Shown: positions 12,156 to 19,633 of the stretch, in pieces
Layout: the number at the start of each line of letters is the position of its first letter
Position numbering within the stretch: the stretch's first letter is position 1
Assembly: GCA_028819565.1 (NCBI GenBank)
Contig: JAPPLD010000029.1
Location: 34,998 to 98,997 of the forward strand
Reading direction: 5' to 3'
Length of the DNA: 64,000 bases
Origin: Gammaproteobacteria bacterium
GTDB lineage: Bacteria > Pseudomonadota > Gammaproteobacteria > Poriferisulfidales > Poriferisulfidaceae
The notes under the pieces: model-generated
Databases searched by the model: none
Told to the model about the DNA's origin: nothing
The model's input: the letters and a program-made list of their open reading frames with translations, nothing else
Translations under genes and position numbers: made by a program

Positions 12156-12581
12156 ATGAGCACCCTGCGAGTCGAGATCGTCAGCGCCGAGCACGAAATC
12201 TATTCGGGCGAGGCCCATTGGGTGGTGGCACCGGCTGCCATGGGCGATGTCGGCATCTATCCCAAGCACACGCCGCTCATCACTCACCTCAAGCCCGGCG
12301 AAGTGCGGGTCAGCGCGGTGGAGGAAAACGAGGAACTTCTGTTCTTCGTCTCCGGCGGCATGCTGGAGGTGCAACCGCACCAGGTCACCGTGCTGTCCGA
12401 CACCGCCATGCGGGGAGCGGATTTGGACGAGGCGAAGGCCGAGGAGGCCAAGAAACGGGCCGAGCAGGCACTGTCCGACCGCAAGGCTGATTTCGACGAG
12501 GCCCGGGCCTTGGCGGAGTTGGCCGAAGCTGCGGCACAGCTGCGAATGATCCAGAAACTGCGCAAGACCGGTCGCGGCTGA
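12156..12581 (+). CDS. atpC: F0F1 ATP synthase subunit epsilon
   Basis: 141 aa and the last gene of the atp operon. It has a beta-sandwich N-terminus and a helical C-terminus. Confidence 0.93.
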
Positions 12582-12752
12582 CCCAGATTTAGACCTGCCA
12601 GCGATCTACGCTGACACGCCCAATGTGGGAAGCCACACCCTTGGCAGCTATGTAAAAATTATGGAGATCTACTTGGCTCTACCAATCGGTCGGTCGGATA
12701 CTCTCCTAGGGAATGCGCGGATGGGCGGAGTCAGGTCTTAATAGGAAAGTGG

Positions 12753-13694
12753 ATGAAGGAAAGCAGAATTCCAGTAGGTGCGAAGCGCAAGACGAGCCCA
12801 TACTCGCAAAGCCCGTTCCAAGTTCTCACGTGTGGCTTGGGCGGCGGCATTCTGTCGAGTGCCACGGCGTTCTACTTCGAGTTGGGCGGCGAGTGGTTTC
12901 TCATCACGAACTGGCATGTCGTCAGTGGGCGCAACTTCCTTACCGGCGAACGACTCGGCAAGGCCGGAGAGCCTTTGTCTCTGGTGTTGAAACTGGCAAC
13001 GTATGACTGGGGCGAGTGCAAGGATGGGGAGTTCGTGATTGCACCGCACAATGTGGCACTCTACGAAGGCGAAAACCCCATATGGCTAGAGCACCCCACG
13101 CTGGGGCATCAGTGCGATGTAGTCGCCATTCGGACTGGACGACCCAAGACATGTCCCAAGAGCATGCACAACGCCGCAAACTTAATCAGCACACGCCCCA
13201 ACAGCAACATCCCGATCCGGCCTGGCGGAGATGTATTCATCATCGGATTCCCCACAAGCATCAGTGTCGGCTTTGGGCTGCCGTTGTGGAAGTCGGGCTA
13301 CATCGCATCGGAGCCACAATACGATGTCGATATTGGTGGGAAATCATGGGAGTTCGGAGGGATGGTGGATGGAACCCGTATTCCGGCGTTTTTCGTGGAT
13401 GCTCAAACGCGAAAGGGGATGTCCGGCTCGCCCGTGTTCGCCCGCTACTATGGCACATGGGACATGAACGAACCGTACGCGGCCATCGATTTCGATGACC
13501 CTGAATTAATTGACCGGGATGATGTGGTTTTGTGGAGCGAAGGTGTGCGTTTCGTCGGGTGCTATAGCGGCCGCATCGCTGGCACCAACGTGGCCGAAGC
13601 AGGGCTGGGGCTGTGCTGGCGAGAGGAAGTGATCGAGACAATCTGCCGAAAGGGGAAACCGGGGAAGAACCCCCATATGCGCCACCCTACATAG
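12753..13694 (+). CDS. cytoplasmic trypsin-fold (S1/Trypsin_2-like) serine peptidase
   Basis: 313 aa. The putative triad is His in FLITNWHVVSG, Asp in QCDVVAI and Ser in KGMSGSPVF (GxSGSP-type). There is no N-terminal signal peptide or TM segment. SD-like AGGAA lies at 12743-12747. Confidence 0.7.
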   Translation: MKESRIPVGAKRKTSPYSQSPFQVLTCGLGGGILSSATAFYFELGGEWFLITNWHVVSGRNFLTGERLGKAGEPLSLVLKLATYDWGECKDGEFVIAPHNVALYEGENPIWLEHPTLGHQCDVVAIRTGRPKTCPKSMHNAANLISTRPNSNIPIRPGGDVFIIGFPTSISVGFGLPLWKSGYIASEPQYDVDIGGKSWEFGGMVDGTRIPAFFVDAQTRKGMSGSPVFARYYGTWDMNEPYAAIDFDDPELIDRDDVVLWSEGVRFVGCYSGRIAGTNVAEAGLGLCWREEVIETICRKGKPGKNPHMRHPT

Positions 13695-13925
13695 CCAATG
13701 TTCCTACTGATCGTCTCTTCATCCCAAGGATGTATTCCGATCCGTGCACCAAAAACTCTCGTGGGAATCAATCTTCAAAGTTATTGATTTACAAATACTT
13801 AATGTGGCCTTGCAGGAACCGCGACGCTTTTTGATTCGTAAGCTGTTGAATCTGCACCAAAGTGTGTGGCTGACCCCTCTCCGTGGTTATAATCTTTGCC
13901 ACACTCGCCCACCCCACCATTTCCA

Positions 13926-15578
13926 ATGCCGAACATAGAATTCGAAGGCAAATGGAATGTCTATGCAGCGCATCTCGTGACGCCATTCCGTCCCTTGATT
14001 CCAGATACGAAGAAATCCATACCGCAGGGCAAAGCGCAAGCCGATAAGCCCTCGACCGAGGGAAACCTGATTATCCAGGGTGATAACCTCCACGCCTTAC
14101 GTGCCTTGTTGCCGCGCTACGCCGGGCGCATCCACTGTGTCTACATCGACCCGCCTTACAACACAGGAAATGAAGGGTGGTGCTACAACGACAACCTGAA
14201 CTCACCTCTGATGAAACGCTGGCTGAAAGAAAACGGCGCTGTGGACCTTGAAGATGAGGAACGCCACGACAAGTGGTTGTGCATGATGTGGCCGCGCCTG
14301 CAACTGCTGCGGGAATTGCTGGCGGAAGATGGAGTTATTTTTATCACGGTCGACGACAACGAACAGCACCGCCTTCGGATGGTAATGGATGAGATTTTTG
14401 GCGAGGATAATTTTTTAGCATGCATCTCTTGGGAAAAGAGGTACACGCGAAACAATAACGCAAAGATGTTCACTTCGGTTGTGGACAAACTGGTTGTTTA
14501 CCGAAAAAGCGAACTGCTAGATTTTCTCCGCGAACCACGCAACACAAAAGCAGATGAAATTTACGACAACCCAGACAATGACCCCCGCGGCCCTTGGACA
14601 AGTGTTTCTTACGTCAATCCCGCGACCAGAGAACAAAGGCCAAACCTGGTCTACACCATCATCAATCCATGCACAAAAAAAGAGGTGCGTCATCCTACAA
14701 ACGCTTGGAAATTTGAGCCTAGTGAACACCAAAAACATGTGCTGGAGAATCGGCTCTGGTGGGGGAAAACAGGAAAGAACAAATTCCCACGACTGAAAAA
14801 ATTTCTATCCGAAGTTTCAGATGGGCTTGTTCCAGTAGACCTGTGGAAGCACGAGGATTCTGGAACAACCGATGAAGGGAGCCTAGAGCTTGAAAGGATT
14901 TTGGGCCGAGCTAAGTTTGACAACCCCAAGCCTACACGTTTGATTAAGAGGATCATCCGGCTATGCCCCCACGACAATCCTATCGTGCTTGACTCCTTTG
15001 CAGGATCTGGAACCACCGCCCAAGCCGTATTGGAACTCAACAAGGAAGACGAAGGGCTCCGGAAATTTATTCTCGTGGAATGCGAAGATTACGCAAATAA
15101 GATTACGGCTGAACGTATCCGCAGAGTCATCAAGGGGATCAAAAACACCAAAGACGGAAATCTCCAACAGGGCTTGGGCGGGGGGTTCACCTATTGCACC
15201 CTTGGCGAGGCTTTGGATATCGAGAGCATGCTCTCCGGTGAAAACCTCCCGGACTACGAAACCATTGCCCGTTGCATTGCACACAATTACACGGGCCTCG
15301 CTTTGGACAAGGTCAAAAAAGGCAAGGACTGGCTGTTCGCCGAGACCGACCGCCATTGCCTGCACCTCATCTACAAGCCAGATCTCAAGTTCTTGGAAAA
15401 CGCCACGGAGGCCGCGCTCACGTTTGAATTGTCCGAACGCATCGGCAAAGCTGCGGTAAGAAAAAACAAGGAGGCGCTGGTCTTCGCGTCCCACAAATTC
15501 ATGTCGCAAAAAGATCTGCGTTACCACAAGGTGACTTTCTGCCAGATCCCCTACTCGGTCTTTGGCACCGCTGGATGA
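13926..15578 (+). CDS. mod: type III-like DNA methyltransferase (Mod; N6_N4_Mtase family, beta-class motif order)
   Basis: From ORF 13896..15578 (TTG). I chose the ATG at 13926 (MPNIEFEG). Motif IV is CVYIDPPYNTG and motif I, further downstream, is VLDSFAGSGTTAQAV. The gene is followed 18 nt later by the helicase-nuclease gene. Confidence 0.8.
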   Translation: MPNIEFEGKWNVYAAHLVTPFRPLIPDTKKSIPQGKAQADKPSTEGNLIIQGDNLHALRALLPRYAGRIHCVYIDPPYNTGNEGWCYNDNLNSPLMKRWLKENGAVDLEDEERHDKWLCMMWPRLQLLRELLAEDGVIFITVDDNEQHRLRMVMDEIFGEDNFLACISWEKRYTRNNNAKMFTSVVDKLVVYRKSELLDFLREPRNTKADEIYDNPDNDPRGPWTSVSYVNPATREQRPNLVYTIINPCTKKEVRHPTNAWKFEPSEHQKHVLENRLWWGKTGKNKFPRLKKFLSEVSDGLVPVDLWKHEDSGTTDEGSLELERILGRAKFDNPKPTRLIKRIIRLCPHDNPIVLDSFAGSGTTAQAVLELNKEDEGLRKFILVECEDYANKITAERIRRVIKGIKNTKDGNLQQGLGGGFTYCTLGEALDIESMLSGENLPDYETIARCIAHNYTGLALDKVKKGKDWLFAETDRHCLHLIYKPDLKFLENATEAALTFELSERIGKAAVRKNKEALVFASHKFMSQKDLRYHKVTFCQIPYSVFGTAG

Positions 15579-15596
15579 CCATCCGCAGGCCCCGGC

Positions 15597-18158
15597 ATGC
15601 AACTCAAGGAATATCAACAAAGCGCCCTAGATGCCTTCGACCGCTATCTCGAGGCCTTGGAAGAAGGCAAAAGAAAATGCAGCCAGATGGCTGAAGCGGG
15701 AGAAACCGACCCTGAATATTTGGATTTCGCACGAAGGGCATGGAATGAACTGAAAAAGCGAGGTCATCTTCCACGCATCGTCGGTCGAAGTGGGGCGCTT
15801 GAAATCCCGGAATATGTCGCACGCTCTGACGAAAGAGGTCAACCCATCCCGCATGTGTGCCTGAAGGTACCAACCGGGGGCGGCAAAACCCTGCTCGCAG
15901 CCTCAGCACTTGAACGCTTGCGCCCGCGATCCGGCATCGTACTGTGGATTGTTCCCTCCAAAGCGATCTTCCAACAAACCTGGGTGTCTCTCGCCACCCG
16001 CCTCCACCCCTATCGTCAGGCCCTTGAACGAGGCAGTGCCGGACGCATCAAACTGTTTCGTAAAGGCGACCCCATTTCTCGCCTGGATGTGGAAAACCAT
16101 CTTTGCTTGATACCCGTCATGCTTCAGGCAGCAGGCAGAAAAGAGACCGGAGACTTTCTCAAGATTTTCCGCGACTCCGGGAAGTATCCAGACTTCTTTC
16201 CCGCGGCTGACGACCTTTCGGAAAACCAGAAAATGCAAGCCGAATTCCCAGACTTGCACACACACGATCTCGGCGATGCCGCACTTGCCGGCACCATCAA
16301 ACGAAGTTTATTCAATGTCCTGAAAGTCACGCGCCCGATTATTGTTCTGGACGAGGCGCACAACGCCTATTCCGAAACGCGCCGGCGGCGTCTGTGCGAA
16401 CTCAACCCCCGCATCATGATCGAATTGTCCGCCACGCCAAAAACTGGCGTCAGCAACATTCTGGTGAACACACCCGGTGAGGCGATGAAGCGGGAGAACA
16501 TGATCAAACTGCCGATTAATATCCACAGCCTGGAAAACTCTGACTGGAAGCACACGTTGAGCAAGGCCGTGGAAAAACTGGCCGACCTACAGCATCGGGC
16601 CGACGACCTCGTGCAAAAAACTGGGAAATACATCCGCCCCATCATGCTGATTCGCGTCGAACGGGTTGGCCGGGAGCAGCGCGACGGGGAACATATCCAT
16701 GCCGAAGACGTTCGGGAAGAACTGATGAAACTCGGTATTCCCGACAGCAACGTTCGACTCAAGAGCGCCTATCGAGACGAAATCGCCCATGAAAACCTTT
16801 TGTCTCCCTACTCCTCGGTCCGTTACATCATCACCAAGGAGGCCCTGCGGGAAGGTTGGGATTGTTCATTCGCATACGTCCTGACTCTGCTGGATACCAC
16901 CAAAACCGATCGCGCCATCACCCAGATGGCTGGACGCATCCTGCGTCAACCCTATGCAGAACCGACTGGTGAGACTGCACTGGACGAATGCTATATCTAC
17001 TGCTTTGACACATCCGTCGGGCAGGCCGCCGAACGGGTCAAGGCAGGGCTGGAAGATGAGGGAATGGGCGATTTGGGGGAATACGTACAGGGAGACGGGG
17101 AAGAGGCTCCCCGACAATTAACTTTCGAAAGAAAATCCGATTGGCGGGACACCCGAATCTTCCTACCCCAAGTGCTGCACCGCACATCTGCCCAAAAAAC
17201 CCGAGCCCTAGATTATGAGCGAGACGTACTGGCTTATCTAGATTGGGCCAAGTTGGCAGACACGGACCTAGATACGGAAGCCTTGGTCCGACGAAAAAGC
17301 GGAGAGATTGTCATCCGCGTGGACCCGTTCGAGGAATCAGGGCTGCCAAGCCATGACAAACTGGACACTGACCCGGAACTCGACATCAACTATTTCGTGC
17401 GGCGAATCAGCGATGCCCTCCCTGTGCCATGGCTCGCAGCAAGCCTTGCAAAGGCGGCCATCCGGAAACTCAGGAAGGAAGGCATGACAGACAAACTGTT
17501 GCATGCTTGCCGCGCAGACTTGGCAGAAAGGATGCGCCAGCAATGCGCCGCCCGCGCAGAGCATGAGGCTCATAGCATTTTCTGTGACAAAATCAGGAAT
17601 GGAGACATCCGGTTTGAACTCGTCGCAGGCAACAACTTTGAACTCCCGATGTCGATGGACAAAATCGTAGAGGTTACCCCCAAAACATTGCAAGGAAATT
17701 ATGGGGCGACCATACAGAAATCCCTCTTCGATCCACAAGGAATTTTTGAAAAAGAATTCAACGGCCTAGAGAAAGATTTCGCCCTGCACATGGATGGGCA
17801 TGCAGCCGTGGCATGGTGGCACCGATTGGCTGTAAAAAGCAACGGCTATGCCCTGCAAGGCTGGAAGCAGGGGAAAATGTACCCCGATTTCGTCGTCTGC
17901 GTCTCCTCGGGACACGGCAAAACCCCAAAACGCCAAATTCTGGTCCTGGAAACCAAGGGATTGCACCTGTCTGGAAATCCTGATACCCAATATAAGGAGC
18001 ACTTACTTGAGAAACTGGAAGAACTGGCCCCAAAAGCAGAGGAATGCGGGGATATTGAACTGCGCGGGAAGAGACAGAAACACAGGATGAAACTCCGGAT
18101 TCTCATGGAGAACACCTGGGAGAGAGATTTTGAAAAAATAGTGCAGAATCCGTCATGA
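15597..18158 (+). CDS. res: type III-like restriction enzyme Res subunit (SF2 DEAH helicase + C-terminal PD-ExK nuclease)
   Basis: 853 aa. Motif I is KVPTGGGKT, motif II is IIVLDEAHNAY and motif III is LSATP. The C-terminal MYPDFVV ...(x14)... LVLETKG fits a PD-(D/E)xK nuclease signature. Confidence 0.8.
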   Translation: MQLKEYQQSALDAFDRYLEALEEGKRKCSQMAEAGETDPEYLDFARRAWNELKKRGHLPRIVGRSGALEIPEYVARSDERGQPIPHVCLKVPTGGGKTLLAASALERLRPRSGIVLWIVPSKAIFQQTWVSLATRLHPYRQALERGSAGRIKLFRKGDPISRLDVENHLCLIPVMLQAAGRKETGDFLKIFRDSGKYPDFFPAADDLSENQKMQAEFPDLHTHDLGDAALAGTIKRSLFNVLKVTRPIIVLDEAHNAYSETRRRRLCELNPRIMIELSATPKTGVSNILVNTPGEAMKRENMIKLPINIHSLENSDWKHTLSKAVEKLADLQHRADDLVQKTGKYIRPIMLIRVERVGREQRDGEHIHAEDVREELMKLGIPDSNVRLKSAYRDEIAHENLLSPYSSVRYIITKEALREGWDCSFAYVLTLLDTTKTDRAITQMAGRILRQPYAEPTGETALDECYIYCFDTSVGQAAERVKAGLEDEGMGDLGEYVQGDGEEAPRQLTFERKSDWRDTRIFLPQVLHRTSAQKTRALDYERDVLAYLDWAKLADTDLDTEALVRRKSGEIVIRVDPFEESGLPSHDKLDTDPELDINYFVRRISDALPVPWLAASLAKAAIRKLRKEGMTDKLLHACRADLAERMRQQCAARAEHEAHSIFCDKIRNGDIRFELVAGNNFELPMSMDKIVEVTPKTLQGNYGATIQKSLFDPQGIFEKEFNGLEKDFALHMDGHAAVAWWHRLAVKSNGYALQGWKQGKMYPDFVVCVSSGHGKTPKRQILVLETKGLHLSGNPDTQYKEHLLEKLEELAPKAEECGDIELRGKRQKHRMKLRILMENTWERDFEKIVQNPS

Positions 18159-18265
18159 CATATGCTGTGAGCCGTCGGGGGCCTCCCCGTATTGCTCACT
18201 CACCTCTGGTGCGGCTTTTGGCTTTCTTGCCGATTACTCCATAGAACAAAAAATAGCATGACCCC

Positions 18266-19633
18266 ATGAGAACCGAAGCTGTCATTCTTGCCGGGGGCGT
18301 CGGCAAACGCCTAGCGCAAGCCGTACCGAAACCCCTGCTCGACCTGTGCGGGAAACCCCTGCTCGGGCATGTCATGGAAACGGCCGCGGCCGTGGCGGAC
18401 AAGATCCATGTTGTGTACGGCCCTCCGTTGGCGGAGTCGCTCGCCGAGCTGGAAGAGGCATTTTCGATTCCTTTCGCATCTCACCTGCAGCCTGAGCCCC
18501 GCGGTACGGCCGACGCGCTTGGCTGCGCCCTCCCGGCGATAGAAGATTCCGCCACCGTGATCGTGCTGTGCGCGGATGTCCCTCTGCTGCGACCCGACAC
18601 TCTCACCCAACTGCTGTCCACCCGCCCCGAGACCGGCCTCGCGCTGCTGACCATGCGCCAAAGCGACAGCCAGCTTGGACGGATCGTGCGCGGTAACGAC
18701 GGGCAGGTCCTCGCCATCCGGGAACACGCCGACGCCACGGAAGAGGAACGCCGCATCGACGAGTGCAACACCGGCGTAATGGCGGCAAGCGCGGGACAGT
18801 TCCGCGAATGGTGTGCGCGCACCACCGACCGAAACGCCCAGGGAGAGTTCTACCTGACCGACTGCATCGCTGAAGCGGTACAAGACGGAATCCCCATCGA
18901 AACCCGGGAATGCAACCCGATCGAGGGTCTCGGCGTCAACACGATGCAGGAATTCGCCGTGGTGGCGGAGCAATGGCAGCAGCAGGCGCGCGAGCGACTG
19001 ATGGCGCAAGGCGCCCTGATGGAAGCACCCGATACGGTGTGGCTGTCGGCGGGAGTGGCACTGGAAGAAGGCGCGGTAGTTCGCATCGGGCCGCATGTTG
19101 TATTCCGGAAGTCGGTCCAACTGGCCGATGGGGCAGATATCGGACCGTACACGCTGCTGAGAAACTGCAAAATCGGCGCCGATACCAAAATCGAGCCTTT
19201 CACCGTCATAGAAGCAGCTCAAGTCGGAGCCCGTTGCCGCATCGGACCCTACGCACGAATCCGCCCGGAAACCGAATTAGCCGAAGGCGTGCAGATCGGG
19301 AATTTCGTCGAAGTCAAAAAGTCCCGAATCGGTGAGGGCACCAAGGTCAACCACTTGTCGTACGTCGGCGACAGCGAGGTCGGCCGCAGCGTCAACCTCG
19401 GGGCGGGCACCATCACCTGCAACTACGACGGAGCGCACAAGCACACGACCGTGATCGGGGACGATGTCTTCGTGGGGTCCGGCACCCAGTTGATCGCCCC
19501 CGTCAGCATTGGCGCCGGTGCAACCATCGGGGCCGGCTCGACCATTACCCGGGACACCCCGCCCGGAGAATTGACCCTGTCTCGCAGCAAGCAGAAGACG
19601 CACCAGGGCTGGAAGCGTCCGCAGAAAGACTGA
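18266..19633 (+). CDS. glmU: bifunctional GlcNAc-1-P uridyltransferase / GlcN-1-P acetyltransferase
   Basis: 455 aa. It starts MRTEAVILAGGVGKRL and has a C-terminal hexapeptide-repeat (left-handed beta-helix) region. Confidence 0.95.
   Translation: MRTEAVILAGGVGKRLAQAVPKPLLDLCGKPLLGHVMETAAAVADKIHVVYGPPLAESLAELEEAFSIPFASHLQPEPRGTADALGCALPAIEDSATVIVLCADVPLLRPDTLTQLLSTRPETGLALLTMRQSDSQLGRIVRGNDGQVLAIREHADATEEERRIDECNTGVMAASAGQFREWCARTTDRNAQGEFYLTDCIAEAVQDGIPIETRECNPIEGLGVNTMQEFAVVAEQWQQQARERLMAQGALMEAPDTVWLSAGVALEEGAVVRIGPHVVFRKSVQLADGADIGPYTLLRNCKIGADTKIEPFTVIEAAQVGARCRIGPYARIRPETELAEGVQIGNFVEVKKSRIGEGTKVNHLSYVGDSEVGRSVNLGAGTITCNYDGAHKHTTVIGDDVFVGSGTQLIAPVSIGAGATIGAGSTITRDTPPGELTLSRSKQKTHQGWKRPQKD

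Follow-up and report, generated by a model that had tools for sequence, protein, structure and literature searches.

We analyzed a 64,000-nucleotide stretch of contig JAPPLD010000029.1 from a sponge-associated Gammaproteobacteria bacterium of the Poriferisulfidaceae (the window, in what follows, refers to this whole stretch) and, within it, a gene for a trypsin-fold (Trypsin_2) serine protease that lacks a signal peptide (positions 12753–13694, + strand, 313 aa, ATG start). The gene lies between atpC and glmU and adjoins, on the same strand, the Mod and Res genes of a type III restriction-modification (R-M) system. A preliminary description of this DNA had proposed the protease as a third component of that system. 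Our analysis leads elsewhere: we consider it very likely that the protease is independent of Mod-Res, and the family to which it belongs presents the picture of an accessory cassette common in defense islands and mobile DNA, and not of a subunit of any one system. The explanation that we favor is that an autonomous one-gene protease cassette lies beside an equally autonomous Mod-Res cassette and acts as an abortive-infection-type defense, and we give this explanation, taken as a whole, an even chance of being correct. As for the role of the protease, we tentatively infer anti-phage defense or defense against mobile genetic elements, an assignment that should be read as falling somewhat short of probable.

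The relation between the protease and Mod-Res was considered from both sides. Protease relatives, mostly with 42–62% identity to the window protease, were collected at 48 loci in species-representative genomes that span many phyla, and a Mod or Res homologue was found within 8 kb of the protease at none of these 48 genomic loci (tblastn, E ≤ 1e-5). Starting from Res, the protease was found in none of 28 metagenomic loci with Res homologues, five of which include 2.7–4.4 kb of sequence upstream of Mod. The placement of Mod directly upstream of Res was kept across the 28 loci. Two more Res relatives (52% identity) have other neighbors, and in contigs L097 and L098, where Res is 72% identical, the upstream sequence is too short to score the presence of the protease.

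The same chromosomal site can also be compared in a close relative of the window organism (contig L094, with atpC 95.6% identical at the nucleotide level). There, atpC is followed by 306 nt, Mod, Res (72% identical to the window Res at the amino acid level) and glmU, and the protease is absent. Homology between the window and L094 ends exactly at the atpC stop codon, and BLAST resumes 11 nt before the Mod ATG. Pairwise alignment of the two revealed patchy but clear conservation over ~140 nt 5' of Mod (13785–13925, + strand, in the window), including a TATAAT box whose distance to the ATG is 32 nt in each of the two (a perfect consensus match, at 13888–13893 in the window). As this upstream region is conserved in an allele without the protease, the Mod-Res cassette brings its own upstream region, a candidate autonomous mod-res promoter, with the protease lying outside the cassette. 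Promoter and terminator consensus scans gave results at or below shuffled expectation, with nothing in the two + strand spacers.

The protease, for its part, has limits of its own. The only stretch with DNA similarity to the nearest protease gene (contig L054; blastn, 86.7% identity) spans positions 12721–13730 on the + strand, which include the protease open reading frame (ORF) with its ribosome-binding site and extend ~36 nt beyond the stop codon. As L054 itself breaks off 8 nt past this match, the 3' limit of the protease cassette is provisional; upstream of the protease, L054 contains a phage-integrase fragment instead of atpC. Taken together, these four independent tests, namely, the protease loci, the Mod-Res loci, the L094 site and the cassette limits, speak against the protease being part of the R-M system. 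The conserved linkage to Mod and Res that a gene-neighborhood comparison might have revealed was found neither at the 48 protease loci nor at the 28 Mod-Res loci, and L094 lacks the protease altogether. The proposal of a third type III component therefore fails for want of conserved co-occurrence with Mod-Res. The preliminary description had also likened the protease to protease effectors of defense systems, and here the presence of a putatively cytoplasmic S1-fold protease in a defense island stood, although the coupling to Mod-Res did not. The broader idea of a defense-related cytoplasmic protease is plausible but unproven.

The protease, Mod and Res together form the whole foreign insert, which extends from the atpC stop codon to the glmU start codon (12582–18265, 5.7 kb). 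The G+C content at third codon positions (GC3) is 0.60–0.68 in these three genes, as compared to 0.73–0.86 in the flanking atp and glm genes. In runs X4–X7, which stem from one sponge sample, a 148-nt contig with a depth of ~26x joins position 12581 to 18265/6 via 47 unrelated nt, while the 5,784-nt contig with the insert (12546–18329, including protease, Mod and Res) presents a depth of merely ~7x. In this sample, the atpC-glmU site is empty in ~78% of the population and occupied by the 5.7-kb insert in ~22%, and the contrast in depth between the empty and filled sites shows the insert to be a genuine presence/absence polymorphism. In runs X1 and X3, the depth of the insert equals that of its flanks. 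The atpC/glmU site is a variable hotspot with at least three alleles (empty, Mod-Res only, and protease with Mod-Res), and the status of the three genes as a foreign island is real. A search for flanking repeats or a target-site duplication of the island returned short repeats at chance level alone. The 47 nt of the empty site, which are not kept in the filled allele, contain a terminator-like hairpin (CCCGGGGGC-GTAAAAT-GCCCCCG). As this hairpin is missing from the filled allele, it is conceivable that transcription of the atp operon reads through into the protease.

Most of what the preliminary description had stated of the gene itself was borne out. It had pointed to a protease with a His/Asp/Ser triad in the motifs TNWHVV, CDVVAI and GMSGSPVF, to the lack of an export signal and hence a cytoplasmic location, to a good Shine-Dalgarno sequence, and to a position directly upstream of Mod-Res in a foreign island, across a spacer of ~230 bp. 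The spacer measures 231 nt (46% GC) when counted to the Mod ATG at 13926, both Mod and Res are intact, and the insert polymorphism and GC3 contrast described above agree with the island. A purine-rich, GGAAAG-type Shine-Dalgarno sequence lies a few nt 5' of the protease ATG. All three motifs are present, and the catalytic residues His55 (codon at 12915–12917, + strand), Asp122 (13116–13118, + strand) and Ser224 (13422–13424, + strand) are invariant in both of the homologue alignments that we constructed (n = 21 and n = 114). The suggested search with the Pfam Trypsin_2 model (PF13365) gave 32.1 bits (E = 2.3e-7, residues 38–230), above the curated gathering cut-off of 27.6 bits. Trypsin_2 is the sole Pfam domain of the window protease, with no PDZ domain detected, and no NCBIfam model matches the protein.

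The AlphaFold2 model of the protease, based on the 114-sequence alignment, reached a pLDDT of 90.9 and a pTM of 0.90. Foldseek comparison of this model returned 213 PDB matches with E ≤ 1e-3, with DegS, DegP, HtrA, V8 protease and the exfoliative toxins on top; the best matches presented a target-normalized TM-score of ~0.65 at 11–15% identity. On the basis of the model, one can be confident that the window protease adopts the double β-barrel chymotrypsin fold; its sequence contains the complete His/Asp/Ser triad, and proteolysis is predicted. No solved structure was found among its sequence relatives, whether the search was made with the single protease sequence or with the family profile, and a search of viral folds in BFVD yielded only generic viral chymotrypsin-like proteases.

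Within residues 1–45 of the protease, hydrophobicity (10-residue windows) peaks at a Kyte-Doolittle mean of 1.65 for residues 24–33, which overlap the β strands at residues 22–27 and 33–44 of the model. The family-wide maximum of N-terminal hydrophobicity on this scale is 2.12. Inspection of the sequence revealed no hydrophobic core, lipobox or twin-arginine motif at the N-terminus, from which the protease is predicted to reside in the cytoplasm. The ratio of non-synonymous to synonymous substitution rates (dN/dS), calculated for the window protease against its four nearest relatives, was 0.13–0.19, indicative of purifying selection and, as judged by this measure, of an intact and selectively maintained gene.

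A word-indexed search yielded 986 relatives of the protease. When 1.84 billion cluster representatives were searched exhaustively with a profile, this number rose to 2,922 clusters at 50% identity with E ≤ 1e-3, 1,867 of them with E ≤ 1e-10. The best 150 representatives are all 120–355 aa long and present single-domain matches, with no domain fusion found among them. The family consists of stand-alone proteins of ~300 aa that have spread horizontally across many phyla. In the 114-sequence alignment, the mean column identity is 59%. Characteristic of the family are the segment RSTYSQCPFQ at the N-terminus and five cysteines that are invariant or nearly so (C121, C134, C270, C288 and C298), one of which is next to the catalytic Asp. 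By analogy with some viral chymotrypsin-like proteases, this set of cysteines could form a structural metal site. The protein also contains ~100 residues beyond the minimal chymotrypsin fold. All-against-all BLASTP of 727 ORFs from the 48 loci revealed no conserved neighbor beyond duplicate contigs, nor was any conserved small flanking ORF found, again beyond duplicate contigs, among 1,079 ORFs (≥45 aa) lying up to 1.3 kb from the protease at 54 loci. An AAA_15/21 ATPase was considered as a recurrent partner and rejected, as the ATPase at one locus (P0005) has no counterpart at the other protease loci, bar one marginal match.

The genomic contexts of the window protease and of its seven closest relatives examined are all, in eight of eight cases, of the defense or mobile-element type. 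Apart from the type III R-M system of the window, the neighbors are a phage-integrase fragment (P0001), AbiEii (P0002), Fic, HigBA and a type I R-M system with an embedded Abi_C gene (P0003), a type I R-M system and the AAA_15/21 ATPase (P0005), DruA, IS66, conjugation genes and an OLD-like nuclease (P0007), McrBC, two HigBA pairs and a transposase (P0015), and a type ISP enzyme, integrase, RepA and HigB (P0018). A restriction system is thus adjacent or two genes off in the window and in four of the seven relatives (types III, I, I, ISP and McrBC). At the locus of a 69%-identical relative (contig L050, 8845–9564), an Abi_C-domain gene separates hsdS from hsdR in the neighboring type I system and is a textbook example of an embedded defense gene.

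For the more distant loci, we performed a census of three ORFs on either side of the protease at 43 genome loci (the protease ORF is complete at 41 of these and partial at two), using Pfam and PADLOC. The hits were scattered and included components of type I, II and IIG R-M systems, AriA-like ATPases, AbiLi, Avs4, PD-Lambda-4, SIR2, PIN, NYN, RhuM and a relaxase. Still more distant relatives (25–32% identity) are found on 93 plasmids, of which Klebsiella accounts for 69. On a Raoultella IncFII plasmid (L083), the protease relative lies beside repA and IS110, and in the temperate Shigella phage SfII (L084, 40429–41049), it follows the lysis cassette and has IS911 and an HNH gene as neighbors. 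The family thus recurs in defense islands, plasmids, integrative elements and prophages. The recurring pattern is one of loose co-location with many types of defense and mobile genes, as expected for an independent defense-island cassette.

Among known systems, the closest affinity of the protease is with the phage defense candidate PDC-S45 of the PADLOC database. The hidden Markov model of PDC-S45 matches all 21 family members tested, with a best E value of 1e-10. While the window protease itself is matched weakly and in part, distant members of the superfamily are matched strongly (phage SfII gene 57, 1.5e-32; a metagenomic member, 1e-21; the Raoultella/Klebsiella IncFII plasmid protease, 1.4e-18). 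This combination makes the window family a divergent sister family of PDC-S45, and not PDC-S45 proper. Both are stand-alone, Trypsin_2-type proteins (~290 aa in PDC-S45) encoded by a single gene that has no fixed partner and that is found by or inside R-M-type systems and in prophages, whereas the N-terminal RSTYSQCPFQ segment and the conserved cysteines are the window family's own. The PDC series consists of 145 candidates embedded in R-M, BREX or DISARM loci ('guilt-by-embedding'; Payne et al., bioRxiv 10.1101/2024.01.29.577857), the premise being that additional genes located within or next to R-M operons are, as a rule, defense systems in their own right. The window locus fits this pattern of an embedded independent system, and the window protease is a divergent newcomer in an already recognized class, i.e., single-gene protease candidates beside R-M systems. 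Our search of the literature turned up no published experiment on PDC-S45 and none on a stand-alone Trypsin_2 defense gene. Further matches were obtained with PHROG 7688, whose function is not known (E = 7e-21), and, weakly, with the protease domains of LmuA and RT-Protease (RT-Protease XI) in PADLOC.

Other trypsin-fold proteases resemble the window protease in certain respects only. HtrA, DegS and DegP, as well as V8 protease and the exfoliative toxins (MEROPS S1C and S1B), share the chymotrypsin double barrel and the motifs TNxHV, D-hydrophobic and GxSGxP. These proteins are, however, periplasmic or secreted, whereas the window protease has neither a PDZ domain nor a signal peptide and contains the ~100 extra residues. 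The trypsin/MBL-nuclease pairs of Hachiman, AVAST, Lamassu and DRT offer an antiviral comparison, in that they, too, contain a cytoplasmic trypsin-fold protease (Science 2025, PMC12799240; bioRxiv 10.1101/2025.09.03.673762). In these modules, the protease forms a fusion with a sensor enzyme, and its partner is an upstream, co-evolving proenzyme nuclease (PMC12799240); other recently described protease-proenzyme modules likewise combine a sensor-fused protease with a co-evolving effector. In contrast, the window family presents no fusion among the top 150 representatives and no conserved adjoining effector.

According to the explanation that we favor, the protease would work alone, as a second-layer effector of the abortive-infection type. 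It would remain latent until a phage or another invading element supplies a trigger or substrate complex, and, once active, would cleave an essential host or phage protein. Lit, encoded by the e14 element of E. coli, is a zinc metalloprotease that cleaves EF-Tu in abortive infection. The fold of Lit is unrelated, and the likeness would thus lie only in the proposed logic, in which one gene of a mobile element, coding for a cytoplasmic protease, kills or arrests the infected cell upon the appearance of a phage product. Candidate sites of regulation or sensing are the ~100 extra residues, the conserved N-terminus and the group of cysteines. Toward Mod-Res, the relation would be one of co-location, possibly with complementary protection, and with no physical or regulatory coupling. 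A more specific view of the family, which we hold to be rather unlikely, is that it represents either a one-protein immune system, combining sensing and killing in one trypsin-fold domain with the insertions and cysteine cluster particular to the family, or a helper, independent of R-M type, that neutralizes or senses phage anti-restriction proteins. Either would account for the repeated settling of the family beside four restriction types.

Several points weigh against the favored explanation and should be considered when referring to it. In the sampled population, the protease, Mod and Res come and go as a single 5.7-kb block, and no terminator is predicted in the 231-nt spacer between the protease and Mod, such that co-transcription of the protease and mod-res is possible. 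Ordinary metabolic or housekeeping genes are found within three ORFs at many of the 43 censused loci. A type I-like R-M system is located within 8 kb at just five of the 48 genome loci, as determined by a crude phmmer screen, and the counts of defense contexts are raw tallies. The match of the window protease to the PDC-S45 profile (PDLC05022; E = 5.7e-8, 30 bits) covers only positions 149–215, that is, 67 of 293, and PDC-S45 itself has candidate status only (bioRxiv 10.1101/2024.01.29.577857). Lastly, an obvious sensor domain is absent from the stand-alone protease, and the trigger is purely hypothetical.

Of the other explanations considered, the one that survives best, although we judge it unlikely, is that the protease is non-defense mobile cargo or serves an accessory housekeeping function, be it as a processing or quality-control protease, an addiction (toxin-like) module or an anti-defense factor. 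Such roles would agree with the strong conservation of the family across phyla, with the metabolic and housekeeping neighbors at many genome loci, and with the presence of relatives by the replication region of conjugative Klebsiella plasmids and in a temperate phage. There is also a precedent, if a looser one, in IetS of the IetAS system, a serine-protease toxin for plasmid stability (cited in PMC13069673). A toxin-like or processing role is, however, disfavored by the lack of any conserved antitoxin-like or substrate-like neighbor, while the patchy presence/absence and the island location are unlike what is seen for the core genome. The best database affinities of the protease are, moreover, with defense candidates and with protease domains of defense systems (PDC-S45, RT-Protease XI and LmuA).

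Less probable still, and in our view improbable, is that the protease is a generic helper of any restriction type, which would destroy or sense phage anti-restriction proteins or provide proteolytic restriction alleviation when a new R-M system arrives. Proximity to restriction systems of four types in five of eight contexts (the window and seven relatives), together with type I R-M systems within 8 kb at no fewer than five of the 48 genome loci, is what speaks for it, as does the definition of the sister PDC-S45 via embedding in R-M, BREX and DISARM. Nonetheless, most genome loci have no nearby restriction gene, and the plasmid and prophage relatives lie beside repA/IS110 or IS911/HNH with no R-M system. 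As R-M systems are the commonest systems in defense islands, such adjacency is expected from co-location alone. Finally, it is highly improbable that the protease is a third component dedicated to the type III system of the window, whether as a suicide effector held in reserve or to regulate or activate Res, since the adjacency on one strand, the single polymorphic insert and the terminator-free spacer that would favor it are countered by Mod-Res without the protease in L094, by the lack of co-occurrence at both sets of loci, by the Mod upstream region and TATAAT box being kept in the protease-less allele, by Mod and Res subfamilies that match full-length two-gene models in PADLOC, and by protease DNA homology that stops ~36 nt past the stop codon (where L054 has 8 nt left).

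With the idea of a three-component type III R-M system removed, what takes its place is a testable candidate family of partner-less cytoplasmic serine proteases, comprising ~2,900 clusters at 50% identity, that travels as single-gene cassettes through defense islands, plasmids and prophages. If it is true that one member alone protects against phage, it would rank with the simplest known immune modules based on a protease, and such protection would also validate the 'guilt-by-embedding' candidate class, including the sister PDC-S45. Independently of function, the atpC/glmU site is a clean natural example of a chromosomal defense hotspot, at which closely related sponge symbionts have no gene, two genes or three genes.

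The neighboring type III genes form a separate module. Mod, a methyltransferase of 550 aa (13926–15578, + strand), matches the PADLOC model MTase_III with an E value of 7e-168, and Res, a restriction subunit of 853 aa (15597–18158, + strand), matches REase_III over its full length with an E value of 1.5e-211. Both are full-length fits to the two-gene type III models of PADLOC and full-length members of classical type III R-M (EcoP15I-like Mod2Res1-2), of which the protease is not part. For Mod, the start is the ATG at 13926, and not the TTG at 13896 that opens the longest ORF, as follows from the PADLOC profile alignment, in which the MTase_III profile begins at residue 11 of the TTG-started ORF, and from public gene calls.

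The middle of Mod (14414–14984) cannot be aligned with the L094 allele, although its flanks are 69–77% identical. This part is presumably the target-recognition domain, and the comparison of the two sequences suggests a specificity swap in Mod between the window and L094. Contig L097, in which the cassette is found at another chromosomal site, beside a NUDIX-like gene, retains the window-type middle of Mod. In contig L096 (3377–8589), a 52%-identical relative of Mod-Res is preceded by a pair of genes for a helix-turn-helix protein and a Peptidase_M78 (ImmA/IrrE-like) protein, and adjoins a CBASS system (SMODS and patatin); here, too, a type III pair has additional genes immediately upstream. 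A striking share of the protease and Res relatives come from metagenome-assembled genomes of sponge symbionts (bins SB06xx, APA and IRC2; Ca. Poriferisodalis and Ca. Spongiihabitans), which suggests an exchange of defense cassettes within sponge microbiomes.

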